From the NCBI RefSeq assembly GCF_001447785.1, contig NW_015177016.1, positions 524,502-588,501 of the forward strand: DNA of 64,000 bases. Direction: 5' to 3'. The DNA comes from Gekko japonicus. Lineage: Eukaryota. The translations under genes were made by a program, and so were the position numbers. The notes beneath the pieces are model-generated. The model was not told the DNA's origin. It ran no database searches and worked only from the letters and a program-made list of their open reading frames with translations. Below are positions 13,469 to 64,000 of this stretch, one piece after another (position 1 is the stretch's first letter; every line of letters starts with the position of its first letter).

Positions 13469-13963
13469 GATGGCTGAGGGGTGACATGATTGAGGTTTAC
13501 AAGATTATGCATGGGAAAGAACAGGTAGAGAAAGAGGTCCTTTTCTCCCTTTCTCACAATACAAGAACTCGTGGGCACTCCATGAAATTGCTGAGCGGTC
13601 AGGTTAGAACGGATAACAGGAAGTACTTCTTCACCCAAAGAGTGATTAACACATGGAATTCACTGCCACAGGAGGGGGCGGCGGCTACAAGCATGGACGG
13701 CTTCAAAAGGGAATTAGATAAGCATATGGAGCAGAGGTCCATCAGTGGCTATTAGCCACAAGGTATAGATAGGGGCTCTGGGGCAAATGATGCTCTGTCT
13801 TCTTGTAGCTTGGAGGAGCCAACAGTGGGAGGGCTTCTAATGTCCTGGCCCCACTGGTGGACCTCCTGATGGCACCTGGTATTTTTGGCCACTGTGTGAC
13901 AGAGTGTTGGACTAGATGGGCCTTTGGCCTGATCCAACATTGGTGTCTCTTATGTTCTTATGT
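13469..13963 (+). mobile_element. CR1 LINE 3' end
   Basis: RGDMIEVYKIMHG...TRGHSMKL...RKYFFTQRVINTWNSLP...FKRELDKHME and a (TTCTTATG)n-type tail. Confidence 0.92.
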
Positions 13964-15612: not shown

Positions 15613-18600
15613 TTTCTCCTTCAGTGGGGGAAGTCATCCAGACTGGTTAGGTCACGCCTCCTCTCGCTCCAGGCAGGGCTATGCAAATTTGTGTAGACTG
15701 TATTGGCTCAGAGTGAGGCTGACTCTCCAGTTTCAATAGCCCTGCCGCTCCAGCAGGACGCTTGAGCCTAGCTCTGCTTTCTTGGGGACTCTTGCCTTAT
15801 ATGGAAGATGGAAAAGCCTTGAAGAAAGGCCCCATCGTCAGCCTTAACAGAAGAAAAAAGAGACCTTTAAGACAAGCCTCTCCCGCCTGAGGTTCCAGGC
15901 ACCAGAGACTGGCCAATGGCAGAAACATCTGCAATGCCACAAACTGCCCTCAGTGAGAGACCGTTGTGGCAGGCCTCTCCCGCCTGAGGATTCAGGCATC
16001 AGAGACTGGCACGGGCCTCTATCGGTGCTGCCAGACCCGAGGCTTCAGGTTGTTTCTGCAGCCGGCCCCCCAACTGCGCTTGAAAAATCAAGCAGAGCTC
16101 TACTGGGCCTGAACCCGGAGCCGGTCTCTTGGAGTCTCTTACCGTGTAAGTATGGAAGTCGGAAGGGCCTTGAGGCAGGGCCCCATGGCCGGTCTTAGAG
16201 AGAAAGGGGAGACCATTGTGGCAAGCCTCTCCCACCTGAGGATTCATGCATCAGAGACCGGCATGGGCCCATCAGTGCTGGCAAACCCAAGGCTTTGGGT
16301 CATTCCCCAGCCAGCCCTTGACTGTGCTGAAAACACCCAACAGAGATCTACTGGGTCTGAACCCAGAGCCACTCTTTTCGAGTCTCTTACCTGTAAGTAT
16401 GGAAGACAGAAGGGCCTTGAGGCAAGACTCCACGGCCAGTTTTAGAAAGAAGGTGAGTCTATTGTGGCAGGCCTCTCCCACCTGAGGCTTCAGGCATTGG
16501 AGACTGGCACGGGCCTCTGTTGGTGCTGCTAGACCTGAGACTTCAGGTTGTTTCTGTAGCCAGCCGCTGGCTGCACTGGAAAAACCCAGCAGAGCTCTAC
16601 TGGGTCCAGCAACCATGAGGAGATTGCAGCGTCTGGCCTGCTCCATACCGACTTGGAGGCTTCCAGGCCTACAGGAAGTGAGAGGGTTGGAGCTGAAGGG
16701 CCCCCCAAGAGACATAGGGGCAGTGGGACGAGGACCCCCAAGGTGAACAAAGGGTCGATCCAAGCAAATGCAGCAGAGCAGGCCCCCCTCCAAGCCTTCT
16801 CTGAGGCCTTCCCCAGTGGTTTTGGCAGTTCCAGTAGGGCGGCTGCTCAGGGTTTTCCCCGCTCTTTTTCTGCCCTCCCTCTTTAGGCCTTTAGTCTGGC
16901 CTCAGCCTCCCCCAGCCCTGTGCGTATGCAACCAGGAATCAGTAGTGGCCGGGGAACACAATGCAAGGATCAGATTGTCCAAGGCAGAGGGAGCCCATTG
17001 GAAAATATGAACAGTATGGATTGGCTGGAACTTGTGGCAGTCAGACTAGCACGGTGTGCTTTCCAAATCCTATCGAGGAACAAGTATGTGCTAAGGCACA
17101 CAGTCAATACTGTGGCCAAGGCACACAGCAATTGGCAAGGAGGCACCAGATCAGTGGTGCTCCTCCATGAGTCCAAAATCCTGTTCGTTTGGACAGGGGG
17201 GGAAATGGTAGGTCTAAAAGGGGAACACCTTTATGGTTTTGCAAACTGCCAAGCCAACTGGCTGAGAAGGAAGGAGTTAGATCCAGGAGAATGGAGTCTA
17301 CACAAAAAGATCTTCTAGCAAAATCACACTTTGTTTCAGGAGCCCTATCTTGGATCCTTTTTGCAACATCAAACTATAATCAAGTTGCCAGGTTTCTAAT
17401 CATTTTCTATGATTCCAGGGCAGAGGGCAAGGGCACACACACTTGTTGTTGATGCAGTGGTCTGCTGTACGCTTTTCCTCTGACCACACTGATCAGCTGA
17501 GGCCTGAACAAAGTGTCAAAGGAGACAACAGAGGTGATTTTCATATCTGCTTTCTGGCACAGAGGTTTTTGGGTCTCAAAGCTTAGTGAAGATGTCAGTG
17601 TGTTCACCGTGGAGATTGCCAAGTGATGGGTTCTCCTTGAACACGAATCCACTTGCCACCTGGACCCTATTTGACTCCAGCTGACAGCTTAGAGATGGAA
17701 CTGGTGGATTTAGTAGGACTGGGCCTTCCAAGTTAAGTAGTTGACACCATGGTGCAGTCCAGAATACCTGCTTCCAGTTGTCTCTATAATCGTACATGGC
17801 AGATATTCAAAAGTGGACCAGTACCAAAAAGCTGGATCCACTGAAACTTATTTACAAAGACATCATTCCCTCGCTACACCAAGGTTTGGAATCAGGTTCT
17901 AAGACCGGATACCTTAAGAGACAGCTTGCAGCACTGGCCTCTATGTGGGACTGCATTAGGCTGCCTAATTTTTCTTCTCATAGGTAATTTTAGCTTCCCT
18001 GAAAGGAACCATACAGTTGGCACCTCCCATTAGGCATTAGTTGTTTACTGGGAACCTGTCTAAAGTGTTACAGGCCTTGAGCAGTCCTCCATTTGATCCT
18101 TTCAAATCATCAGAATCTAAAGTCTCCTTTTTGAAAGACTTCTTTTTTCCTGCAGAGATGACTTCTGCAAGAAGGGTTTCTGAATTAGGGGCTTTATTGG
18201 CCGGAATGGAATTGTGTATATTTCACAAGATCTCAGTGGTACTCAGGAGGGATCCTTCCTTTGTGCCAAAGGTTTTTTCCCTTATCACGTTAACCAAGAG
18301 TTGATACTACCATCTTTTTGTCCTATACCATGTTACCCCAACGAGAGAGTCTGGCACAAACTAGATGTGCTCAGAGCTCTGTGTGCCTCCTTCATAGGAT
18401 GGTGCAAATTACGCTAAAAGATTTTCTGTCTGTGTCTCACAGCTCAGCCTTTAGGTAAAAAGGTCTCAAGCTTTGTATCAGAGATATATGATGTGCAAGG
18501 CCTAGGACCTCCAAAGGATGTTATGGCCCCACTACACCAGATCTGCAGTAACATAGCAACCTTTTGCACCAGTGTTCTACTGGAAAAAATTGTTAGAGTC

Positions 18601-29132: not shown

Positions 29133-30582
29133 TAGAATCACAGAATCACAGAGTTGGAGGGGCCATAAAGGCCATCTAGTCCAGAGGTGTCAAACTCATT
29201 TGTTACAAGGGCCAGATCTGACATAAATGTCACTGTGTTGGGCTGGGCCATGTGTGCCATAAAATATAATGCCAGGTAACAGAAATATCAACTTTATAAA
29301 GGATACAGGCTGACCCAATTAACAATATTATTTTTAACTCAAAATACAAACAAAAGCAATTGATTCCCAGCAGTGAAAAGAATTGACTTACTAGGGAGCC
29401 CTCAGAAGCACCCAATAAATGTATTTAATCATATGCACGGCTAGTTTTTTCCATACATAATAATTGCTTGCGGGCTGGGTAAGAGCCCTGGATGGGCTGG
29501 TTCTGCCCCCCGGGCCTTATGTTTGACAGCTTAGATCTAGTCCAACCCACTGCTCAATGCAGGACCAGCCTAGAGAATCCCTGACAAATGTTTGTGCAGC
29601 TGCTGCTTAAAGACTGCCAGTGAGGGGGAGCTCACCACCTTCCTAGATAGCTGATTCTCCTGTTGAACAACTCTTATTGTAAAATGTTTTTTCCTAATAT
29701 CCAGCTGGTACCTTCTCGCTCTTTATTTAAACCCATTATTGCAAGGCCTATCCTCTTCTGCCAACAGGAATAGCTCCTTGCCCTCCTCTAAGTGACAGCC
29801 CTTCAAATACTTAAAGAGAGCAATCATGTCCCCCCCTCAACTTCCTCTTCTTCAGACTGAACATTCCCAAGAGCCCTCATGGATCAGACCAGGGTGCCAT
29901 CTGATTCAGCATGCTTTCTCACATAGTTGCCAACCAGTTACTCTGGAGGATCAACAATAGGGCACAGAGACCTTCTCCTGATGTCGCCTCCTGACACAGA
30001 GGTTTACTATGAATGTGGAGGTTCTTTAGTTACCTTCGCTAGTAGCCACTGATGGACCTGTCTATCTGATTCCCCTTTAAAGCTGTCTATGCATCCTCTG
30101 GCTGTGAATTCCACATTTTAGTATTTTGTTTTGTCCATCTTTAATCTACAGCCCTTCAACTTCATTTGGTATCCCCAAATTCTAATATTTTGTGAGAGGG
30201 AAAGTTCTCTCTGTCTACTCCATGCGTAATTTTATAAACTTCTATCATGTCTCCCCTTGGTTGTCTCTTTTATAACCTGAAAGAGCCTGGACTCTTTAGC
30301 CTTTCTTCATAGGAAAGGTGCTGCAAACCCTTAATCATCTTGGTTGCCCTCTTCTGTAATTTTCCTAGTTCAGCAATGTCCTTTTTGAGATACGGTGACC
30401 AGAACAGCATACAGCATTCCAGCTGAGGCTGTTTTATTTTCAATCTCTTTCCTAGTAATTCCCAGCAGAGAGTTTTCCTTTCCTTTTTCACTATTGCTGC
30501 TGCACTGAGTTGGCTTTTTCATTGAGCTATTCACTTTGACTACAAGGTTTCTTTCCCTCTCAGTCTCAGCAGGTTTTGACTC
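29133..30582 (-). mobile_element. Two adjacent CR1 3' fragments; the second continues after the Gypsy insertion at about 35350-36020
   Basis: (AGAATCAC)n tail at 29133; WSPYLKKDIAELGKLQKRATKMIKGLQHLSYEERLK on the - strand; CR1 RT remnant after 35354. Confidence 0.85.
29182..29534. mobile_element. hAT-Charlie-type MITE inserted in a CR1 3' UTR
   Basis: cagaggtgtcaaac / gtttgacagcttag termini; 8-bp TSD atctagtc (29174-29181 / 29535-29542) with Charlie-type NTCTAGNN target. Confidence 0.82.
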
Positions 30583-30860
30583 TGAAAAGTACTGGGTTTG
30601 CCGCATGGAGGACTCAGACAACGACATGCGTTTGCACACGTTTATTGTACTTAACATTGAAACTGAAAAATTGCCCTGCAAGGCCAACTATATACACACC
30701 CACCCAGCACACCCACACTCCCATTGGACGGTTTGAATTTCCTGCCAAAGTAGCTATTGGTGAATGCTGGGGGAACTAGGATCGTAGGTTCCTATTGTTT
30801 AGAGGAGCTAAGCTCCTGACTGTAGCTGCGGATCCCTAGTGGCAGTCCGTGTACGTAACA
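30583..30860 (-). repeat. Gypsy 3' LTR (278 bp)
   Basis: TG...CA; direct repeat of 35075-35349; AATAAA on the - strand (tttatt near 30641). Confidence 0.95.
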
Positions 30861-30899
30861 CCCCTCCCCCCATAGTTCCGACCCTACCTATGTAATATA

Positions 30900-33155
30900 G
30901 TCCTTTATATAGGCGGTGGGGGGGTCCGTCGCTCTCTGAGGGAACGACGGGGGGGGCTGGTATTGGGTCACTGGCTATGGGTTCCAGTTGCCTTGCTGTG
31001 ACCTGGGACTGAAACGCCTGTTGTGGTGGCTGAAGTGTCTCTGGTTCTGTTGGTTCTGGTGTTGGTTCACTCGGGGAGGCTTCCTCCATGCTCGAGGGGT
31101 CTGGATGAATACTGGACTTGGGTGTGTGAGTGCCAGTTCCTGCAGCCAACGGTAGTTGCTCTCCTGCCTCCGGGAGCTGTCGCCGCCTTAGTTGGTCAAG
31201 GTGCTTCTTTAAGAGCCTGCCATCTTCCGCCGATACCTCGTAAAATACCGGCCCTGTGACTTTGATCACTCTTCCTGCCAACCAGGGGGTTCCAGTTCTG
31301 TAGTTCCGGATGAATACTGGGTCACCCGGGAAGAACCCTCTCAGATCATCTCGCTGTTCCACCATCCTCTTGGAGTCTGGTACCCGGTCCAGGTGTAGCC
31401 GATCCAACAAGGTCACGGCGCGTCGACCCATCATTAATTCTGTGGGGCTGTGGCCAGTGACGGGGTTAAGTGTTGTTCTCTGGGTCAGGAGAAAGCGGGC
31501 TAGCCAGAACTCCCAGTCCCCGTCTTTTATCCTGTTGAGGGATTCCTTTGCTGTCTGCATCATCCTCTTGGCCTGGCCGTTGGTCGCGGGGTGGAAGGGT
31601 GGGGATCTGATGTGCTGTATCAGGTTCTTTTGGAGAAATTCCTGGAACTCTACCGAAATGAAGGATGCCCCGTTGTCAGAGACTATCGTGTCCGGCAGCC
31701 CGTGCGTAGCGAAGATCCAGCGGAGGGATCGAATCACGGCCTTCATCAAAGTGGTAGACACATGGCTGATCTCCAGCCACTTCAAGTAGGAGTCAACCGC
31801 CACTAAGAATAACAGTCCCTGGAATGGTCCGGCAAAATCGATGTGTAGCCAGGACCATGGTTTGCGGGTTGACTCCCAAGGCTGTGTTGGCGTGCTTGGT
31901 GGTTTGGGTCGTACTTCTTGGCAGGTTTGGCACTGTTGGACCCACGACTCGATGGTGGCATCGATTCCCGGCCACCACACATAGCTCCTGGCCAGTGCCT
32001 TCATCTGGACGATGCCTGGATGTGCCTCTTGGAGTGCCGTGCAGATTTGTTGTCGCAGGGGTTCAGGGACCATGACCCTGTCCCCCCACAGCAAACATCC
32101 CTTCAGGGCTGAGAGTTCATCTTTCTGGCTACTGAAAGCTGCAAACTCGGGCCCCGGGGATGATGTGGGCCAACCCCTCACCACCCAGCCCCAGCCCTGG
32201 GAGAGGACAGGGTCACGCGCTGAACGTGCAGCACTGTCGGCAGCTTGCAGAGGAGGCTCCGGAAGACCTTCGAGGAGCAGGACCCCAGGAGCAGGATCGG
32301 TGTTAGTGGACGGCAGTGGCAGCCGGCTCAGGACATCGGCATGTCCCATCGCCTTGCCCGGGCGGTGCTCCAGGCGGTAGTGGTATCCAGCCAGGAAGAG
32401 GGACCATTGGAGGACTCATGGCGTGTCTGCTTGTGTGCAGCGAAGAGGCTGAGGAGAGGCTTGTGGTCTGTTGCGATCGTGAATGGGCGCCCGTAAACCA
32501 AGTTATGAATCTTCTTGACCCCGGCTGTGATAACGAAACCCTCCCTGTCGATTTGCGCGTAGTTGCGCTCAGCGGCTGTTAAGGTCCTGGAGTAATAGGC
32601 CACGGGAACCTCGCAGCCGTCAGGGAGGATATGGCCCAGGACCGCACCAATGCGGTAGGGGGAGGCATCACAAGAGAGGACCACCAGCAAGGATTCATTG
32701 AAGTGGGCCAGCACGTTGTTGGAAATTAACAGTGACTTAATCCCCCTGAACGCTGCTGCTTCTTTCGGGCCCCAGGACCAAGGAGCCGACTTGTCAAGGA
32801 GGTGGTTTAGGGGCTCTGCAACTTCAGCCTTGTGCGGCAGAAAGGTGTGGTAGAAATTAATCAGTCCCAAGAACGTCTGTAGCTCTGCTTTACAAGTGGG
32901 TGTGGGGGCCTCCATGATGGCCTTCACCTTGTCCTTAGCTGGATGGAGGCCGGCTGCATCGACCCGGAACCCCAGAAAGTCCACTTCGGGGACCCCAAGG
33001 AGACATTTCTCCCATTTCACTTTGAGGCCAGCCGAATCAAAGCGTTGCAGGACGGCATGGAGGTGGGAGGTGAAGTCATCAGGGGAAGCCGCGGAGACAA
33101 GGACGTCATCAAAAAATGGTGTCACTCCACGGATCCCTTTTAACAAGGAGTCCAT
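30900..33155 (-). pseudogene. Gypsy RT C-terminus / RNase H / integrase (frameshifted)
   Basis: FFDD; CDASPY.IGAVL, AERNYAQIDRE, TDHKPL (RH); HPGIVQMKALARSYVWWP..CQTC, HIDFAGP, VSDNG, NGQAKR (catalytic E replaced by K). Confidence 0.92.
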
Positions 33156-34900
33156 TCATTGTTGGAAAATCTCCAGGGTACACTTACACCGAACTGTAGC
33201 CTCTTTACCTTTAAAAGCCTCCCTGTGCGGACTATCATCTGGGCCGTGGCCTCATCAACCGGCAACTGTTGATAGGCCTGTGCTAAGTCTAGTTTGCCAA
33301 AAATCTTAGCTCCTGCCAGAGAAGCCAGGACATGACTTACGACTGGGACCGGGTAGGAGTGGTCGTGGAGGGCCTTATTAAGTGTACATTTGTAGTCCGC
33401 ACAGATGCGGACGTCGCCATTTGGCTTGACAGGGGTAACTATCGGGGTATCCCAGATGGCGTGTGATATTGGCTCTAGGACCCCCTGTGCCACTAATCTG
33501 CCAACCTCCGCATCAATTTTGGGCCAGAGTGCAAGCGGAGCTGTGCAAAATCGCATGCAGAGAGGGGCTACGGTGGGGTCTAATTGCAATGAAATTGGGG
33601 GCCCTTTATAACATCCCAAAGCCCCATCAAAAACGGCGGGGAACTCCCCGCAAACCTCCGCAAAATCCCTCTGAACACATTTATTAACCTCCCCAATCGT
33701 GATGCCCAATGGCGCAAACCAGGCCTGCCCCAAAAGACTTACAAGGTTCCCCTCCACCACAATCAAGTCCAGCAATCCCTCGAAACTCTGGTACTGCACC
33801 CAGAAGGTTCCCACACCCCGAATTGGGACTGGGTTCTTTTGAAAGTCCACCAAACATAGAGGGGAAGGGCGTAAGTGGGGTCCCCCAATAGGACAAAGTC
33901 TGTGCATCATGTCCACTGAAATGATGGATGCCACCGACCCCGAGTCCACTTCCATAGGGCAGGGGGACCCCTCAATCTGGACCGTGACTTGGATCTTCGG
34001 GGTAGCAGACAGGTTGGGGAGGCATAATACCTGAAGGGATGGCCAGTTGGTGAGGTGGTAGAGTTCGGAGGTTTTTGCTGTGGTCTCGTAGGTGGCAGCG
34101 ACCTGGTGTTGGGGCTGGGCTGGAGGTTGCTGGTGCCAGTTTCCCTTGGACTGGCAGATGCGGGCGAGGGGACCCTGTTTTCTGCAAGTGTGGCAAGTTG
34201 TGTCCCGGAACCGGCATGACTTGCGCTCGTGCAGCTCCCCGCAGCTGGCACACAAGGAACGGCCGGCGGCTTTGCGAGGTATCCTGGAGCTGCGGGTCCC
34301 GGTGGTTTCTGGCGAGTGGGTTGGCAGATGAGACGGATGTCCTCCTCATCGGAGTTCTCGGGCGCCGAGTCAGGAAGCACCAGATGAGAAGCTGCCAAGG
34401 GTCGGTTACGGTGGGAGGCCTCGTGTGCAATGGCGAGTTGAAGGGCCTCGTCGATCTTTATGTCGGCGGTGCCAATCATTTTCCTGCACAGCTTTATGTC
34501 ACTGATGCCCCAGGTGAACTGTGTCAGGAGGTTTTCCTCCACCTTGGTGAAGGCACAGTCCATTGCAAGCTGGCGCAAGGCAGCCATATATGCAGTGGCT
34601 GACTCATTCAGCTTTTGGATGCAGCCCTGGAATTCAATCCGTCTGGCAGCATTGTTGGCCGGGGCCAGAGGTATCAGGTCAGGGTGTCAATGATTTCCTC
34701 GTAGGTACATTCGAAGATCGCCCTAGGTGCCAGGAGACTCTTTGCGAGTTGAACAGTGTTCATGCCGCAGGAACTGAGGAGAAGGGCCCGTCGTTTGCCC
34801 AGATCGGTTACCTCATTGTAGTCGAGGTGGCAGGTCAGCTGGTCCATCCATGAGTCCCAGAGTTCTGGATGGGGTGGATCGAAGATCTCCAGGTTTCCTC
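33140..34900 (-). pseudogene. Gypsy gag / zinc knuckles / protease / RT N-terminus (frameshifted)
   Basis: YMAALRQLAMDCAF (gag); CASCGELHERKSC..CHTCRKQGPLARIC (two knuckles, second H to P); MEVDSGS (aspartic protease); VRICADYK, KLDLAQAYQQ (RT). Confidence 0.9.
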
Positions 34901-35074
34901 AAGTGGAGGCCATGGCTTTGGCGTGGAGCATGGAGCGGTGTCCTGGGTGTGGTGCATGGTGCGGTGCTGCTCGGGAGCGATGCGGGGCGTGGTGACATCG
35001 GCTGGATCAATGCTCAGTGCTGCACTTGGATGTGAGCCAGGCCTGGCTCAGCAGTATCCCATCCTCGCCGCCAC

Positions 35075-35349
35075 TTAAAAGTACTGGGTTCGCCACATGG
35101 AGGACTCGGACAACGACATGCATTTGCACACATTTATTGTAAACACTGAAACTGAAAAACGGCCCTGCAAGGCCAAGTATATACACACCCACCCAGCACA
35201 CCCACACTCCCATTAGATGGTTTGAATTTCCCGCCAAAGTAGCTATTGGTGAATGCTGGGGGAACTAGGATCCTAGGTTCCTATTGTTTAGAGGAGCTAA
35301 GCTCCTGACTGTAGCTGCAGACCCCTAGTGGTGGTCCGCGTACATAACA
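35075..35349 (-). repeat. Gypsy 5' LTR (275 bp)
   Basis: Direct repeat of 30583-30860 with about 20 substitutions and one 3-bp indel by manual count. Confidence 0.95.
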
Positions 35350-53399: not shown

Positions 53400-54510
53400 A
53401 TCCATTTTACAGTCTATTTATGCTCCCCACAACATTTTGGAGTGTGCATTTTCCCCGGGGACTTCCATTTTTGGGAAAGTGAATGTTATTTTTCACCACT
53501 ATCAGGTGGCCCTCTCTAAAAGCTTGCAATTTATCGAGAATGTCTTGGAGGAAAATAATCTGTACTGAATTTGGAGCGTAAATGGAGGCAAAGGTCCATA
53601 TCAAGCCATTTATTATACCTTTGATGAAGCTATAACGCCCCATGGGATCTAAGAGACGCCAATGTTGGATCAGGCCAAAGGCCCATCCCCTCCAACACCC
53701 TGTGTCACACAGTGGACAGAAATACCAGTGCCATCAGGAGATCCACCAGTGGGGCCAGGACATTAGAAGCCCTCCCACTGTTGACCCCCCCAAGCACCAA
53801 GAAGACAGAGCATCACTTGCCCCAGAGCTCCTATCTATACCTTGTGGCTAATACCCACTGATGGACCTCTACTCCATATGCTTATCTAATTCCCTTTTGA
53901 AGCCGTCCATGCTTGTAGTTGCCACCACTTCCTGTGGCAGTGAATTCCATGTGTTAATCACTCTTTGGGTGAAGAAGTACTTCCTTTTATCTGTTCTAAC
54001 CCGACCGCTCAGCAGTTTCATGGAGTGCCCACGAGTTCTTGTATTGTGAGAAAGGGAGAAAAGTACCTCTTTCTCTACCTGCTCTTTCCCATGCATAATC
54101 TTATAAACCTCGATCATGTCACCCCTCAGTCGTCTTTTCTCCAAGCTAAAGAGCCCTAAGCGCCTTAACCGTTCCTCATAGGGAAAGTGTTCCAACCCTT
54201 TTATCATTCGAGTTGCCCTTTTCTGCACTTTTTCCAAAGCTATAATATCCTTTTTAAGGTGTGGTGAAATCTGTACTGAATTTGGAGCGTAAATGGAGGC
54301 AAAGGTCCATATCAATCCATTTATTGTGCCTTTGATGAAAATATGATGTCCCATGGGATCTACTTCCTTCTCTTTCAGAATAAAATTAGTCCGTTTTGCC
54401 AAGATTATGGCCACTCCTCTCGATTTTGAGGAACCCGAAGCCATAAACTGTTGTGGGAACCTAGCTGATTTTAACAGAGGGTGTGTAGTTGAGCTGGACA
54501 TGACCTGGCG
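53400..54510 (-). mobile_element. L1/Tx1-type endonuclease fragment split by a CR1 3' fragment (53651-54267)
   Basis: APE motifs SKSRGVAIIL..DPMGHHIFIKG..ASIYAPN..FLQDILDKL..GHLIV; CR1 ORF2 C-terminus of the same subfamily as 13469-13963. Confidence 0.85.
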
Positions 54511-54539: not shown

Positions 54540-55320
54540 CTTTGCTGCCTTCACTGCCACTTCATAGGACTTCAAGCGGGCTATATAAAGTGTTCTTGTT
54601 GCTTTGTCATGTTCATTGCCAGCACCAGTCTAGCCTTCTAAGCCCCCTTTTTACGATCCTTAGTTCATCCTTATACCAGGGAGCCAAGGTAGTATGATAG
54701 CAAAGAGGGCACTGGGGAGCAAATGGGGTGAATGGTCTCCTGAAGGCCCAGATTTCAGGCATCAGTGATTTCATCAAGGGAGATGCCAGCAGAGCCAGAC
54801 AAATCCCACAGAATGTTCTGAAATCTGATTGGATCCATGATGCTCTGCAGCCCAGCATAATTAAGTTCCTGCAGAGGGAGGAGGCAAATCTCAAACTGAC
54901 CTTCATAAGGTAAATGATCAGCCCATGGCACTGGTTTGCAAAGTGATGCTGAATCCAGTTCAATAGCTGCACAAAAGATCAGATCCAGCGTGTGGCCTGC
55001 TCTGTGCATGGGGACCAGTATAACCTGGGAGAGTTCTAATGATGCCATGGCAGTCATAAAGTCTAAAGAGGTACCAAACAAGGCAGCGTCAGCGTGGACA
55101 TGGAAGTCTCCCAAAACTATCAGTTTGGAGAAATGCCAGGCCCACTCTGCCACCGCCTCTAGTAAGCTGGGTGGATGGTAAACCTGCAAGACTTCCACTC
55201 TCTCCCTGGCACCCCACGCCAGGTCTACACATTCAGTGCTGGCAATATTTGGTGCAGGAAGCTGCTTGAAGGAGAAAGAATCCTGGATAAGAATTGCTTT
55301 CCTCTCCATCTTCCCATTTG
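54540..55320 (-). mobile_element. L2 LINE endonuclease-region fragment
   Basis: VYHPP..LIVLGDFHVH..LSQVI..PMHRAGHTLDLIF; APWYKDELR..KR.LRRL. Confidence 0.85.
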
Positions 55321-58045
55321 CAGTTGATGAAGGACCAAGTATCCTGGGGGAGTCAGCTAAGTGAGAGCCACCACTTCACCCTCATCCACCCAGATCTCAG
55401 TCAAGCATGCCAGGTCAAAATTGCCTTTCCTAATAAATCCTGTTGTTGTTGTTGTTGTTGTCTAAATAGGCACCACACAAGGCTTTTACTGTCAGAAACC
55501 AAGTCTTGAAGGCTGGCAGTGCTGTGGTAGTTGCCTCGCAGCTGTGCTGCAGATTTATAGTGCACCAAAAAAAACCACAGTCAGTATGACTGATCCAATG
55601 TCATCTAGTGAGCACCATGACAGAGTAGGAATTGAAACCAGGGTTCCCAGATCCTCTTTCAAAACTCTTAACAGCTACACCACACTGGCTTTAACACTTG
55701 CCCTTTTATTTCCTATGTGCTTGTAGAATATGTCATTCCATTAGTATTTACTAAAACTGGCTGTTGTTGAACAGTAGCAAATAGCCGGGGCTTGGTGAAT
55801 CATGCAAGCCATGTGGTTGCTGGACCTGATGAGTCCTCCCTCAAAGACCAAAGCAGCCCTGGAAAGATCAGATCCAGCGTGTGGCCTGCTCTGTGCATGG
55901 GGACCAGTATAACCTGGGAGAGTTCTAATGATGCCATGGCAGTCATAAAGTCTAAAGAGGCACCAGACAAGGCTTTTACTGTCAGAAACCAAGTCTTGAA
56001 GGCTGGCAGTGCTGTGGTAGTTGCCTCGCAACAGCCACTGAGGAGATTAGTTTGTTAAAGCCACAGGGATTGCCCCTGTCTTTTGGGTGGGTTTTAACCC
56101 CCCAACTTCTTTTTAAAGATTTCTCTGCGAACCTGGAACTTTTCTCACATTTGTAAAAGTTCTCATCTATCCATGGCTCCAGACTTTAGATTTGAGTATC
56201 CACAGATGGCACCATGTTGAGATTTAGATGAATTGATTATAAATATTGACCTTTATTTAGTGACTGTGCAATATTAAACATAGTTACAGCCTTCTAAATG
56301 CATCAAAATCAATGGGCTTAGAAGGCTATAGTTCAATTTATGACTGCACTGTAAGAACCCTGTCTTAAGCTCTGTTGATTCTCTGTATGTTTGCAGAAGA
56401 GCAGGATTTCCATTTGAACATAGTTATGGTGCAGTAGATTTACAGGGTTTTGTGTCAGTGATTGTTCTGTGGCCCCAGTACAGCTCAGTGATACCATGCT
56501 AGGGTACCTGTACTTTGTTATATGATTTGGAGAAAGTGAGGCTGCCAGTAGCTCTTCTGTGAGGTATCAAATTATAATAGCTGGCCTCAAATTGCACTAC
56601 TTTTATGGGAGTCAATGCAAATCATCACTTGCTCTTTTCTTATTACAGAACTAAACATTTCTGTGTACCATATTTATATATAGTTCACCTTTTGCCTCAT
56701 CATGTGGTTAGCCTTATATTCACAACTACATGAGCTTGGAGGATGAGAGAACATATGCCTCTCCATATGTCCAGTATAAAATTTTCAGGGCCTTTACTGG
56801 TGTTAGCATCCTGACTGCAGGGAATGTCTACAGTACTCTATTTTCCCTCTGAGTGAATAACGTCATTGTACATTTCCATTTGCATGATGCTATAAGAGCC
56901 AAGAACAAGTAAATATACTGAAAGGCAATAACAGCCCATCTGGTCAATGACAGTTAAGTTTTATTACTACCCCCAGTGCTGTATTAGTTGATTTAAATAT
57001 TACTGGTGAAATACCTAACTGTCCAAAGACCTTGATTTTGTCACAGATAGGAATTGGAGGGAAATGCTGCTGCTAACTTGCACAGTGTTACTTATGCAAT
57101 GATAGAAGTGAAGTTGTAAAAGCAAGAGTAATAAAAAGGAGCTAAGACCAATTTACTGAATGTTATGAAATAAATTAGAAATCTGAAATTGTTTGTTTAT
57201 TGGACAATCAATCATAGAATTCAGCTATAAAAGATTTTAAAAGCCTTTAAATTCAATATATATTTCCTGCAGAGATGCAGATATGAGTGAATTTCTCTAG
57301 GCAGTCCAGGTTTGAATATGGAAATAGCTCAGTAGTCTCAAAGAACAACAGTTTGGACCTACATATGATTTTTTTTCTTGCAAATAAATGAAAGCACTAA
57401 TGTGAAGCCAAATGAGCTTACTTTCAAATTTAACTTTAAAAAGTGTATTTTATTTTTCTCTCCCTTTCTGTAAAGAACTTGAGTAGGGGCATAATGTACT
57501 GGGAAGTTCCCCCATATAAGCCTCAGGGAAATCAACGGGAACTGTCCGAGAGAAAGGTAGTTTATCTATTTAAGCATGAAGAGCTGAGAGTAATGTATTT
57601 GATTTGATTTGATTGATTGATTAGATTTTTACCCTGCCCTCCTGGCTGAATTCAGCTCAGGGCGGCTTACACAAGAACAGAATAAAATTTCCAATAATAT
57701 AATATAAAATTATCAAACATCACTTAATACAAATAACAAAGCTAAAACTATAGATATAATAAAGTGCTAGTAACTTGATTTCCTCATCTTGCAGTCAGCT
57801 CCTTGATCTTCTTTAGTTGTCCTGGGCGATTAGCTCAGGCAGTAATTAGAGGATCCAAGGGGTCAGGGCTCTCCCATCATAGGCTGTCAGGTGTTAATAG
57901 TGGTGGTGGTAGCTCCAAAGGTCTGGTGGAAGAGCTCCGTTTTACAGGCCCTGCAGAACTGTAAAAGGTCCCACAGGGCCCTGGTCACTTCTGGCAGTTC
58001 ATTCCACCAGAGTGGAGCCGCCACCGAAAACAGCCTGGCCCTAGT

Positions 58046-58223
58046 ATTTACTAAAACTGGAAAGGGGGGGGGGGCTCAACCCAAGATAAGACTGCGAACC
58101 AAAGGGCTAAGCGAACAACGTATATTATAAAAGTACAAATATTTATTAGGGTGTACACATGTTAAAACATATACTGATAAAAATCTTTATCTAAGTATCC
58201 TACTGAAGACCAAACGCGTTTCT
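58046..58223. mobile_element. Short insertion in L2, possibly a Penelope pLTR fragment
   Basis: Interrupts the L2 sequence gccctagt|...|aacctagcctcc; ends in ccaaacgcgtttc, antisense of the GAAACGCGT motif seen in PLE pLTRs. Confidence 0.45.
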
Positions 58224-58544
58224 AACCTAGCCTCCTTGATGCTCAGAAGGACCAGCCGGTTCTGGGTCCCTGATTGCAGTGCTCTCTGGGGTACATATGG
58301 GGAAAGGTGGTCCCTCAGGTATGTAGGTTTCTGGCCATAAAGGGCATTAAAGGTAATAACCAGCACCTTGAAATGAATCCAGTATGCTATAGGCAGCCAG
58401 TGCAATGTCTTTAGCACAGGTTGGAGGTGTTCCCAAATAAGGAGTCCCATCAAAAGCCTGGCTGCGGCATTTTGTGCTAGCTGCAGCTTCTGGATTTGAG
58501 ACAAGGGCAGCCCCATGTAGAGGGCATTATAGTAATCCAATCTC

Positions 58545-60794
58545 TCTCTCTCTCTCTTTTAATAATATATTTATTGGTTTTTTAAACACAAAAAAATAAC
58601 AAGACATATACACAAAGAGACATATTCATCTTAGCTTCTCCAAAATATTCTCACAAAACATAGCATACAAAATTCGACTTAATTTCGTTTTCTCGTCCAT
58701 ACATCACTAATTTCCAAGTTTCTCCAATAAATTCATCCCTTTAATCTGACTTTGAAACAATTAATTTTGCAAACATATCTTCTTCTATCACACCTAAACC
58801 ATTTACTTATTATTTAATCTCAAAAACCTTACACAAAGAGAATTATTTATTTTCCCTAAATTAATACCCGACATATCAAGTCTCCTCATAATTTTTAGCT
58901 GCTGTTACTTTATACTCTTATTTATTGCTTCTGTTATCATTTTCTAGATTCCAAAATGGAAACCAACACCAGCGCCTATACGCCTATATATTGTTTTTTT
59001 TCAATTAATCTAATTTTCAACTCCTTTATGACTCTACCAAAATGTATACCTAATACTTTACCAAATAAGGCACCTATTCTTATACCATAATCACCTCACT
59101 GGTATCCAATCTTCTTATTTTTCATCCTGAAATCTGTTTAAACTAATATAACTAATACATTTGTTAATACTATTATTAAAGTCCAACTCAAATTTACTTT
59201 CAGTATTAAACAGTATCCAAATAAAAAATTTAAGTCAGCCTTCATATAACCTCAATATATTTCTCAACTATTCATCATTACTCAAAAACAGTTAACAAAA
59301 CCATTATCTAAGGTTCCAACTTAAATTATAGCTGTATTCTAATTCCTTATTTCGTTATTTCTTATTTTGCAGCTTAACATCTGTTTAAACTAATATAACT
59401 AGTGTAATTATTTGAATCTGACTCAAATTTACTTACGTTCAGTGTTTAACAAAATCCTTAAGAAAATTAAATAAACCATCCAATGACACGGATATGTTTC
59501 CCAGCCACTCATCATTACTCCCAGAAATTTAAAAAACATAATCCAAAATTCAAATCATATTGCATTTTTCTTTCCCTGATTTTCTGAAACTTCTTTTTTG
59601 CCAGAACCATACTTACATGTCTTAAATCCTTGTAAAGGTGAGATTCCATTTTTAACTCTTGCCCTTTTATTTCCTATGTGCTTGTAGAATATGTCATTCC
59701 ATTAGCTTTATGTCTTTTCTTGGCTCTGATATTTTTGGTATTTTTCCTTATATATTTCCTTGTATTTTTCAATAGCTTCTTTTTTGCCAGAACCATATTT
59801 AAACGTCTTAGTTCTTTGTAAAGGTGAAGTTCCACTTTTAGCTCTTGTCCTTTTACTTCCAACGTGTTTGTAAGATATGTCTTTCCATTAGCATTCTGTC
59901 CTTTCTTGGCTCTGATATGTTTGGCGTTTTTCCTTGTATTTTTCCCCGTGTTCCATTTAGCCCTCCTGGTCGGTTTATTATGTAGTGAATCTTGGTAGCC
60001 TCCTTTTTCTGTTTCTAACTCCAGATTTGTACTAACCACTTGATTAATTTGGCTCTCACGTCCCATTATAGATTGAGTCACAATATCTTGTGGTAAATTT
60101 TCTTGGTTACATTGCTGCGATAATAAAAGCTCTTCCTCATCCTTCTCCTTTAAAACAAGATCCAGTGGTCTCTCCCGGAGATTCTCGAATGCCGTCTTAA
60201 GTGCTTGTTCAGTTTCATCACATAAAAGTTTTTTAAACAGCTCACAGGTTAATCGCATGATTGGTGTATTTTGCTCTTCCTCCGTTTCCTCCATTTCAAA
60301 TGCCATTTTCTTAATTTCACCTTTTACCCCACTGATAGTTTTTAAGTGCTTTTTACTCCCCGTTTCTCTTCCCAGCCATTCTTCCAATAATGGGGGTCAT
60401 TCAAGGGGTTTTATAATACTAAATGACAGATTTTACAGTTTGAATTTGTACTCACATTTAATTCCTTGTTTTTCCTTGTTTTGTTGCATATCATGTTTTG
60501 TATTAATTCATTAGTCTCTAAAAAGGGCGGTTGCATCTTTGCAATTCATGGTGGCCATGATTGCGCCATTCCCTGTCTCCGCATTGAAACATTCTCCTCC
60601 ACCCTCATTCGTTGCTACTCACGGGGTATCCAAGCAAGTCTCCTGCTCCCAGCCTCCCTCCAGGAGGTCTGGTGAAGCCCAACAAAGGTCCCAGGGACCC
60701 CGGGGAGCCCCCAAAAGACAAGGAAGAATGGGGTTGATCAGGAGCAACCCGAACGAACGCCTGCGACAGCACGCTGCTGCCCCCTGCTGTCTCC
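58545..60794 (-). mobile_element. Non-autonomous non-LTR retroposon (HAL1/half-LINE-like architecture), 2250 bp
   Basis: 16-bp TSD atagtaatccaatctc (58529-58544) / atagtaattcaatctc (60795-60810); GC-rich 5' leader; single ORF; T-rich 3' region ending AATAAA..AAAA(GA)n; no EN/RT. Confidence 0.82.
59674..60387 (-). CDS. 237-aa ORF of the retroposon: acidic/coiled-coil-like N-half plus duplicated basic repeat; unknown product, probably prematurely stopped
   Basis: From the ORF track. The repeat KNTRK..K.IRAKK..ANG.TY..T.E.KGQELK.E.HLYK.LR...MVLAKKK continues in frame past the TAG at 59674-59676. Confidence 0.55.
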   Translation of the reverse strand: MEEWLGRETGSKKHLKTISGVKGEIKKMAFEMEETEEEQNTPIMRLTCELFKKLLCDETEQALKTAFENLRERPLDLVLKEKDEEELLLSQQCNQENLPQDIVTQSIMGRESQINQVVSTNLELETEKGGYQDSLHNKPTRRAKWNTGKNTRKNAKHIRAKKGQNANGKTYLTNTLEVKGQELKVELHLYKELRRLNMVLAKKKLLKNTRKYIRKNTKNIRAKKRHKANGMTYSTST

Positions 60795-61332
60795 ATAGTA
60801 ATTCAATCTCGAGGTGACCATCACGTGGGTCACTTTTTCCAGGTCGTTGCATTCGAGGAAGGGAACCAACTGCTAAACAGCCAAAGATGGTAAAAGGCTG
60901 ACTTGGCAGTGGCTGCTACCTGGGCCTCCATTGTTAAGGAAGCATCTAGAAGCACTCCCAGACTCCTAACCTCTGGCGCTGGACCCAATGGTGCCCCATC
61001 GAAGGTCGGGAGCGGGATCCAGACCCTCGGACCGCTCCGGCTTAGGCACAGGACCTCCACCTTCATTGAATTCAATTTCAGCCAGCTCAACCTAAGCCAG
61101 CCAGCCACAGCTTGTAACACCTGGTCTAGATCTTCTGGTTTGGAGTCGGACTGGCCGCCCAACATTAGATAGAGCTGGGTGACATCCACGTACTGGTGAC
61201 AGCCCAGTCCATGTCTCCGGGCAATCTGGGCAAGAGGGCACATATAGATGTTGAAAAGCATCGGGAACAACACTGCTCCTTGAGGCACTCCACATTCCAG
61301 TGGATGCCTTTGGGACAGCTGATCCCCTAGCA

Positions 61333-61644
61333 CAGGGGTAGCCAAACTGTGGCTCAGGAGCCGCATGCGGCTCTTTCAGACATATTGTGCGGCTCCCGGC
61401 AGGGTGGCTGGGGAAGCTAAGTATCATTAACAGACAAATATCATTGCACAAATAAATATCATTGTCAATATCTGCTTTTACCACTTTTGTTATTATTTCT
61501 GGCAGTCTAGTTTAATGTTAATAAAAAGCAAACCTGCATATTTCCAAGTAAAAACGTGTAATGTTTGTTCATGCCTTGCGGCTCTCAAACATCTGACGTT
61601 TTATTCTATGTGGCTCTTACGTTAAGCGAGTTTGGCCACCCCTG
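61333..61644. mobile_element. hAT-Charlie-type MITE (312 bp) inserted in L2 RT
   Basis: caggggtagccaaact / agtttggccacccctg; perfect TSD ccctagca (61325-61332 / 61645-61652). Confidence 0.92.
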
Positions 61645-63034
61645 CCCTAGCACCACTCTTTGTCCCCAGTCTTGGAGAAAGGAAACAAGCCACTGCAAGG
61701 CTAGTCATTGGACTCCAATGTCAGCAAGGCAGTGGATCAGTAGCTGATGGTTGACCGTGTCGAATGCAGCCGACAGGTCTAACAACAACAGCACTGCCAA
61801 TCCACCCTGATCCAGATGCCTCCGGAAGTTGTCTGTGAGGACGACCAGTGCCGTCTCCGTCCCATGACCCGGGCGAAAACCAGACTGGAAGGGGTCTAGA
61901 ATGGAAGCGTCATCCAAAAAGCTCTGTAACTGAGTTGCCACTGCCCTTTCTATTATCTTGCCCAAATAGGGCAAGTTGAAACTGGCCAATAGCCAATTTG
62001 GCAAGATTCAAGGATGACTTTTTCAGAAGAGGGCACACCACTGCGTCTGTAAGTCCCTTTGGGAACAGCCCCTCTGAGAGGGACTTGTTGATAATCTCCC
62101 ACAAGGCACCTTGAAACCCCTCGTGACCAGCTTTAATTAGCCACGAAGGGCATGGATCAAGGGAGCATGTGGTAGGGCGTACAGTTAGGAGCAATTTGTT
62201 GACTTCCTCTAGGCTGAGTGGGCTGAAATAATCCATAATATGTCTAGAAGATGTGCTTGGAGCCTTGAGTTAATTCACTGTATCAACTGTAGCGGGAAGG
62301 TCGTGGCGGATAGAACAGTTTGGAATTTTTTGTAGTCAGACTAGCTAGTATGGATACCACATAATAATTTCTCTTTAGCTCCATATTCCAGGGGATAACC
62401 TTGTTAATATGTTAGAACCAAAATGAGCTTTTACGAAGTACATTGAACAGCAGGTAACTCAAGTATGTGGTACAGTTTCTAGCACTGGTCTTTAGCTAGC
62501 CATTTCCAGGTCAAACCCACTAGGTGTTTCTGTTTTATAGACTGAACATATCTTTTGATCCTATTATTCTTCCTTAATTGTAGTGTGACTAGTGGGTCTT
62601 AACATATTCTTTTTCTCTATTTGTTACTTATTCATTTTATGGACTTGATTTCAAATATTTTATAACATCATTCTAAACAATTAAATATAACACTGAATTA
62701 AAAATATAATGCGTCAAATTTATTCAGGCATTAAAATCATTTTTGCCTCATGAAACAAGAGTATACATGGTCCCAATGAAAGAGATAAGTGAGGTTACTT
62801 TGTATCAGTTATAAATTTGGCAGTCTACCAAATGTTAATTTGCTTTTAGCTAGTTGAGATTAAATGTAATTCCTTCCCTGAGCAGCCTTAAAGTAAGCAA
62901 CCATGAAAGCATTTTCAGAGTAATCTGGGAGGAATTGACATTTAAAGGAGTTAGCATTACATCTGCACTTTAAGGCTATTAATTTCATAGATAAATTAAC
63001 TACATTATTCTGTCTTTATCTTACATTTTGAAAG

Positions 63035-63671: not shown

Positions 63672-63829
63672 CCATCAAGTAACTGACTTATGGCAACTCT
63701 GTAGGAAGCAAGAGACACCTCTGCATCATGATCCTGGACTTCCCTGGTGGTCTCCCATCTGAATGCTAACCAGGGCTGACCCTGCTTAGCTTCTGACATC
63801 TGACGAGATCAGGCTATCCAGGTCAGGGC
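63672..63829 (-). mobile_element. 5S-rRNA-derived SINE (SINE3) with RTE-like tail
   Basis: Minus strand gcctgatctcgtcagatgtcagaagctaagcagggtcagccctggttag..gatgggagacc matches the 5S internal control region; followed by a gttgccataagtcagttacttgatgg RTE-type end. Confidence 0.8.
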
Positions 63830-64000
63830 ATGATACTCTTAGGGTGCAAGAAAGATGAGACATGGAAGATCTGAAGTTTTGATTTTACCTTACAAATTAA
63901 CTGTGATCTATTAGATTAGAACAGTGGTTCTTGGGGAGGGAATTTAACTGTTACCAGCATGTTTCCCAGTCCAAGTCATACATGCCTCTGAAGCCACTAT

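Follow-up and report, generated by a model that had tools for sequence, protein, structure and literature searches.

Elements that depend on a LINE for their mobilization while encoding a protein of their own have been described in several LINE clades. HAL1 (half-L1) is non-autonomous, with a single ORF that encodes ORF1p and no ORF2 (PMC5753468, PMC5786205) and, according to the available part of the first of these papers, has arisen several times in mammals. HeT-A, from the Jockey clade, and Ag-Sponge, from the CR1 clade, have been termed 'ORF1-present bipartite non-autonomous LINEs'; they are RT-less LINE derivatives, and it was proposed that the retained protein multimerises with the proteins of the partner (PMC5786205). 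In the available part of that review, all of the protein-coding non-autonomous LINEs covered (HAL1, HeT-A and Ag-Sponge) retain the ORF1p of their partner (PMC5786205). If real, a family carrying a different protein, or one altered beyond recognition, would represent another route onto L1, and its small protein would make it possible to test how an RNA reaches the L1 ORF2 protein in trans.

Here, a candidate for such a family was examined in a 64 000 nt stretch of the Gekko japonicus genome (the window; contig NW_015177016.1, positions 524 502 to 588 501). An initial annotation made from the sequence had proposed a HAL1-like, L1-mobilized retroposon that encodes an unrecognized protein with a duplicated basic module. 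We think it probable, with confidence somewhat above even, that this is a copy of a gecko-restricted, low-to-moderate-copy, protein-coding non-autonomous LINE family moved in trans by the L1 ORF2 protein. The observations behind this view are an insertion with a target-site duplication (TSD), no endonuclease (EN) or reverse transcriptase (RT), multiple diverged copies, and one ORF conserved across subfamilies. As judged from sequence comparisons, the main finding is the conserved, apparently gecko-only protein rather than the duplicated module. No description of such a family was found in the literature at the level of titles and the beginnings of abstracts, outside subscription papers and Repbase Reports, and the available parts of PMC5203782 and PMC12129022 contain no description of the gecko element. 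This hints at a seemingly undescribed passenger of LINE-1 elements, for which a Repbase or Dfam entry may exist.

Insertion site and layout of the element

The element, a whole non-autonomous retroposon copy of 2250 bp (58545–60794, minus strand), is delimited by its TSDs. It splits a reverse-transcriptase frame and is bounded by 16 bp TSDs with one mismatch, as originally proposed, which lie at 58529–58544 (element 3′ end) and 60795–60810 (element 5′ end). None of 397 random pairs of flanks drawn from the window matches over this length, the best reaching 12 bp. When the element is removed, the two flanks join as a single open frame on the minus strand, comprising an upstream part (60811–61375, continuing to approximately 62270 past a MITE) that includes a Pfam RVT_1 match (E 8e-11) and a downstream part (58223–58528) in frame with it. 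The TSD and the rejoined host frame together establish an insertion of the type made by target-primed reverse transcription (TPRT). The further claim that the target was an L2 ORF2 holds as far as the RT frame is concerned, and we take the frame to be L2 from its C-terminal motifs.

Further inserts lie in the same host L2. One of 312 bp (61333–61644) has terminal inverted repeats of approximately 15 bp and very high read depth, and is flanked by a perfect 8 bp duplication (61325–61332 and 61645–61652); from the length of its TSD, it is presumably a hAT-type MITE. Another, which is AT-rich and approximately 175 bp long (58046–58222), is missing from other L2 copies, as seen in read joints and a gap in the self-match, and its end may resemble a Penelope-like repeat.

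Read on the minus strand, the element begins with a GC-rich head of 195 nt (60600–60794; 61 % GC, 8 CpG), which on composition and motifs is a putative internal Pol II promoter, and continues with an A-rich leader containing upstream ATGs (60307–60599; defined by composition and by alignment to the G. kuhli protein P0002, see below), the ORF, and an AT-rich 3′ region of 944 nt (58571–59514; 72 % AT) with a T-rich tract at its end. The terminal segment (58545–58575) consists of AATAAA (58575–58570), a 9 nt spacer, A4 and (GA)6, and the (GA)6 runs on into the GA with which the TSD starts. The GC-rich 5′ leader, the long AT-rich 3′ region and the AATAAA plus A/(GA)n tail of the initial annotation were all recovered, with the qualification that the A run is only 4 long. 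Absent from that annotation was a second, older duplication of approximately 240 nt with which the 3′ region begins (59112–59554, minus strand), where 59359–59554 and 59112–59319 are 69 % identical.

The reported lack of an endonuclease or RT was also confirmed, as none of the EN, RT or ORF1 Pfam models matched any of the six read-through frames of the element at E≤10. An Rfam scan of 58545–60794 at E≤1 gave no match and so revealed no small-RNA (tRNA, 5S or 7SL) SINE head. Part of the 3′ region (approximately 58700–58990) may resemble the C terminus of squamate L1 ORF2, a possible likeness that was left out of the argument.

The ORF and its relatives in Gekko kuhli

The family ORF, recognized from the open frame and from HMMER homologues, extends over 263 codons from ATG to TAA (59515–60306, minus strand; 43 % A) and contains a TAG at codon 211. 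The long frame that had been reported as 237 aa does exist, at 240 codons from stop to stop, but 237 aa is obtained only if a TTG is taken as the start; initiation at the first in-frame ATG (60306) yields a product of 210 aa that is cut short by the TAG. This TAG (59676–59674) falls within the second copy of the basic module, after which the frame is open for 52 more codons to the TAA at 59517–59515, and it is considered premature because the second module and the tail beyond the TAG align with the G. kuhli protein P0003 (40/78). As 13 ATGs lie upstream of the one at 60306, translation from that position is doubtful for the window copy. Approximately 15 codons that precede the ATG align in frame with P0002 and, thus, the start of the ORF may once have been further upstream.

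The predicted protein, encoded on the minus strand throughout, comprises an N-terminal domain (aa 1–48, 60163–60306) that contains a predicted helix and shares 45–67 % identity with all five of the G. kuhli proteins compared, a poorly conserved acidic/polar linker (59971–60162) with pLDDT <50 in both of the structural models described below, and two basic modules. The first module (59766–59951) has 62 open codons, and the second (59580–59765) includes the premature TAG. Together they form a tandem duplication of 186 nt whose copies are 82–85 % identical. The acidic character attributed to the N-terminal half was borne out, with 24 D/E against 9 K/R in aa 1–100, and the C-terminal half is basic, with 32 K/R against 5 D/E. 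The basic module may resemble the ORF1p RRM/CTD boundary, which was likewise given no weight.

With the read-through protein as query, four of 1.84 billion representatives were matched by HMMER, the best of them at E 1.6e-21. All four are hypothetical proteins of Gekko kuhli, and their clusters contain seven accessions. A profile search added an eighth (P0008), making a total of eight G. kuhli accessions and seven sequences in several subfamilies (K2H54_061196, K2H54_050750, K2H54_039771, K2H54_003383, K2H54_075927, K2H54_021696 and K2H54_000856). Four of the accessions are near-identical (P0004, P0006, P0007), and the subfamilies are 30–47 % identical to P0003. Neither the HMMER search of the 1.84 billion representatives nor the profile search found a homologue in any other taxon. 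A word-indexed protein search with the same query scored none of 774 candidates, and scans of metagenome and viral contigs gave 93 and 304 pattern matches, respectively, of which none was confirmed.

In the architecture common to the family, a variable acidic linker joins an N-terminal helix to a basic C-terminal module. The first module of the window ORF shares 34–62 % identity with the three homologues that extend that far. Alignment of the linker is weak for all but P0002, the closest relative (16/31). P0002, P0005 and P0007 terminate before or within the basic module. All of the G. kuhli proteins have the N-terminal domain of the window ORF and the full-length ones share its basic module, but these have one module and no internal stop; they are annotated as hypothetical, and the names shown carry no link to a transposon. 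Hence, while the duplicated K/R-rich module of approximately 60 aa that headed the original description is present as a 186 nt repeat, it is not a hallmark of the family, and on these alignments the duplication appears to be a trait of the sub-lineage to which the window copy belongs. With its duplicated module and nonsense codon, the window copy is probably not fully functional. The protein itself, which is conserved in G. kuhli, was rightly called unrecognized, in that it was not placed in any family by Pfam, PDB or Foldseek.

In P0008 (K2H54_039771), the first approximately 217 aa are 89 % identical to P0003 and the remainder corresponds to a ribosomal S9 protein, of which it covers the C-terminal half. 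This is probably a misfusion by the gene caller, with a family copy lying within a mitochondrial S9 intron, though exonization is an alternative. At least eight 'hypothetical' Gekko gene models, one of them fused with a real host gene, are accordingly probable transposon ORFs.

Could the ORF be fortuitous, an A-rich UTR frame that was lengthened by the duplication and whose protein was never under selection? Comparison of the two modules of the window copy gives a dN/dS of 0.57 over their whole length and of 0.83 for the core (Fisher p 0.79), revealing no significant purifying selection since the duplication, and 10 of 1000 block shuffles reach 178 open codons, the length without the duplication. 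The premature stop and the upstream ATGs would also fit. Against this, none of the 1000 shuffles reaches 240 codons, and subfamilies that share only 30–47 % identity with P0003 keep the frame open and collinear, its ends being conserved and its linker variable. We therefore regard a fortuitous ORF as extremely improbable. When the ORF was evolved neutrally in simulation to approximately 43–51 % amino acid identity, 0–3 of 1000 frames stayed stop-free, which suggests that the source lineages kept the ORF open; the force of this figure is reduced because predicted proteins such as those from G. kuhli are selected for being stop-free and their gene models could skip stops.

L1 as the likely partner and comparison with ORF1p

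Support for an L1 partner comes from the 5′ motifs of the element and its A-rich ORF. With one gap allowed, a start motif within 60765–60794 (minus strand) aligns with the 5′ consensus of the anole clade-2 L1, a score equalled in 27 of 3000 shuffles in this post hoc comparison, and no ungapped match to that consensus was found in the head at up to 3 mismatches. A motif scan with AGRCGT-N11-GCTC, derived from the heads of L1_AC17 and L1_AC18, gave a single occurrence in the window, at 60762 on the minus strand and 33 nt from the 5′ end of the element (22 of 20 000 shuffles, also post hoc). The A content of the ORF, 43 %, is close to the 43.4 % given for mammal and lizard L1 ORF1 in the available part of PMC5381506, from whose supplement the anole L1 consensuses were compared over their first 400 nt. 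Within these limits, the element and the Anolis clade-2 L1s (L1_AC17, L1_AC18 and L1_AC20) are alike in having a short, comparatively GC-rich head that carries similar start motifs, an A-rich coding strand and a T-rich 3′ end with AATAAA. An ATGGCG at nt 226 of the element corresponds in position to the start of clade-2 L1 ORF1 (nt 217–239) but does not share the frame of the family ORF. The element further differs in having no ORF2 or recognizable ORF1, in its tail of A4(GA)6, and in the length of its 3′ region, which is 944 nt compared to 96–154 nt in clade-2 L1 (PMC5381506).

At the 3′ end, AATAAA and a 16 bp TSD are present, the tail is only A4(GA)6, and the target site is not T-rich. A short A tail and a target that is not T-rich are atypical for L1, and L1 is thus the likely mobilizing partner, short of proof. 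The original claim of L1 mobilization is therefore retained at that strength, with the head motifs and the A-rich ORF in its favour and the target and tail against it.

The designation 'HAL1-like' fits the mode of life. Like HAL1, the gecko element is non-autonomous, with one ORF and no ORF2, the latter in all six frames at E≤10 for EN and RT, and its ends may be of L1 type. The ORF of HAL1, however, encodes ORF1p (PMC5753468, PMC5786205), and the hosts are mammals rather than a gecko. For the gecko protein, neither a match to ORF1p nor an RRM was detected by Pfam, by PDB or in two low-confidence models, in searches run without a lizard ORF1p as control, and as far as these go the element is not classed as a HAL1. 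HeT-A and Ag-Sponge are similarly RT-less LINE derivatives keeping one protein, but belong to other LINE clades and their proteins are the ORF1p/Gag of their partners (PMC5786205, as far as available); no sequence similarity to the gecko element was found.

The element might nevertheless be a true reptilian HAL1 whose ORF1p has diverged or been reduced past recognition, leaving the N-terminal helix as a remnant of the coiled coil and the basic module as a remnant of the RRM/CTD end. The L1-like head and A-rich ORF would be expected, a single-module ORF of approximately 200–250 aa falls close to the bottom of the size range of lizard clade-2 ORF1 (762–1125 nt; PMC5381506), and HAL1s have originated repeatedly in mammals (PMC5753468). 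However, the Pfam models Transposase_22 and Tnp_22_dsRBD matched neither the window protein nor its seven homologues at E≤1–10, a result whose sensitivity on lizard ORF1 was uncontrolled. A PDB sequence search returned three chance-level matches (best E 0.019, no significant stretch) and no L1 ORF1p chain at E≤10. In all of the lizard L1s examined in the available part of PMC5381506, the RRM and CTD are conserved. Two AlphaFold2 models, built on shallow alignments of 7–8 sequences (pTM 0.25 and 0.21), consist of an N-terminal helix, a low-confidence linker and one long basic helix, with no beta strands, which is weak evidence against an RRM, and the N-terminal helix has a predicted length of just 25–35 aa. 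On balance, we consider descent from an ORF1p in this manner unlikely. Foldseek with the model of pTM 0.25 found no match in the PDB at E≤10 and no viral match at E≤0.001. A homotrimer prediction for the N-terminal helix scored 0.02, which weighs neither way, and the ESM Atlas returned blanks for the window ORF and P0003, proving neither absence nor novelty.

For the favoured family of L1-dependent elements, the following course can be envisaged. The GC-rich, L1-like head would serve as an internal Pol II promoter, and the transcript would end at the AATAAA. The L1 ORF2 protein would then nick the target and reverse-transcribe the element RNA by TPRT; in the window copy, the TCTC at the end of the nicked strand could have served as a pairing partner for the (GA)n tail. 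In the encoded protein, a disordered acidic linker would separate an amphipathic N-terminal helix from a K/R-rich helical module of approximately 60–75 aa. Charge is all that suggests RNA-binding or chaperone function. The protein would most likely use its basic module to bind the RNA of its own element and thereby aid entry into the L1 particle, a role modelled on that proposed for the proteins of HAL1, HeT-A and Ag-Sponge (PMC5786205, available part). The more specific proposal, that these are gecko-specific L1 parasites in which a selected protein of approximately 25 kDa, retained across several subfamilies, of new origin and unrelated to ORF1p, routes the RNA into the L1 machinery, is put forward tentatively, as we would give it less than an even chance.

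Copies, reads and neighbouring repeats

Reads from 4 of the 24 runs listed were aligned to the element together with its high-copy L2 flanks. The tables list 40 of 721 letter rows and 24 of 2249 loose ends, and in them rows from these flanks displace rows from the element. In the DNA run X3, four of the contigs listed have 0–1 differences at a depth of 64–79 and four others differ by 8–12 %; at least 14 contigs cover 58663 and 59804. Among the contigs listed, those spanning the element are 2–12 % divergent. Summed depth across the element is 328–2147 in X3 but, as the alignment tool warns, does not equal copy number, and it is taken only as showing that the element is present in several to some tens of copies. 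The diverged contigs and the eight G. kuhli accessions uphold the earlier view that this is a multi-copy family and not a single retrocopy. Two of the contigs listed cease to match at 60781 and 60757, close to the 5′ end of the element. In X3, a joint that links 59759 to 59985 across 39 letters falls 186 nt short of the window sequence, as would fit a paralogue with one module or else the placement of a diverged module on the wrong repeat.

The distribution of depth in X3 bears on whether the protein could belong, as an additional and so far undescribed ORF, to an autonomous L1 (or Tx1) lineage of geckos, of which the element would be an internally deleted derivative. In addition to the L1-like head, this would be in keeping with a summed depth that is greater at both ends (1799 at 60594–60720; at the 3′ end 1187, with a local 3926) than in much of the middle (328–1003). 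However, none of 7999 longer proteins (514–2000 aa) carries the domain, in a search that is weak by the tool's own note, Pfam found no EN or RT domain in any of the seven homologous models, and the element retains no trace of an ORF2 detectable by Pfam. Such an origin is, in our estimation, distinctly unlikely.

Repeated copying by L1 of the mRNA of a fast-evolving, gecko-specific host gene would also generate a TSD, an AATAAA and a long 3′ UTR, as these suit any retrocopy. Run X1 yielded a contig of 1200 nt, 98 % identical over 59785–60781, in which the match ends 13 nt from the 5′ end of the element. The last 203 letters of this contig, which is possibly from RNA, lie beyond 60781 and are not among the alignments listed, and they could represent the longer 5′ end of a parent gene. 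Three considerations weigh the other way: homologues were recovered from one Gekko annotation only, where they form several subfamilies with near-identical members; the base composition and head motifs are L1-like; and there is no spliced joint inside the element among the 15 of 85 RNA joints listed. Retrocopies of a host mRNA are accordingly judged a poor prospect. RNA depth is sparse and equal in both directions (0–7 per direction in X21 and 0–1.6 in X22) and therefore indicates neither a promoter nor expression of the locus; the run search found no matching run recorded as RNA.

A 55 bp match to the element at 55690–55744 was considered as a separate family copy and rejected. It is part of a patchwork (55380–56050) of short pieces that are 97–100 % identical to nearby DNA, with sources at 54974–55084, 55460–55540, 58042–58060 and, in the element, 59651–59705 including the TAG. 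As it lies within this locally copied patchwork, the shared TAG is not independent evidence. The arrangement would be typical of templated insertion during break repair.

Other repeats were noted in the window. A full-length 5S rRNA match (63723–63835, minus strand; 47.9 bits, compared to a gathering score of 38) may be either a 5S pseudogene or a 5S-headed SINE. Direct repeats of 279 bp, 92 % identical (30582–30860 and 35074–35349), surround a broken pol-like region (30582–35349) that, by eye, appears to be a decayed LTR retrotransposon of Ty3/gypsy-like type. Inverted 480 bp copies, 93 % identical (13474–13952 and 53650–54129), correspond to a LINE RT C-terminal fragment that looks RTE/BovB-like by eye, and imperfect direct repeats of approximately 250 bp, 74–86 % identical, form an array at 15780–16606.
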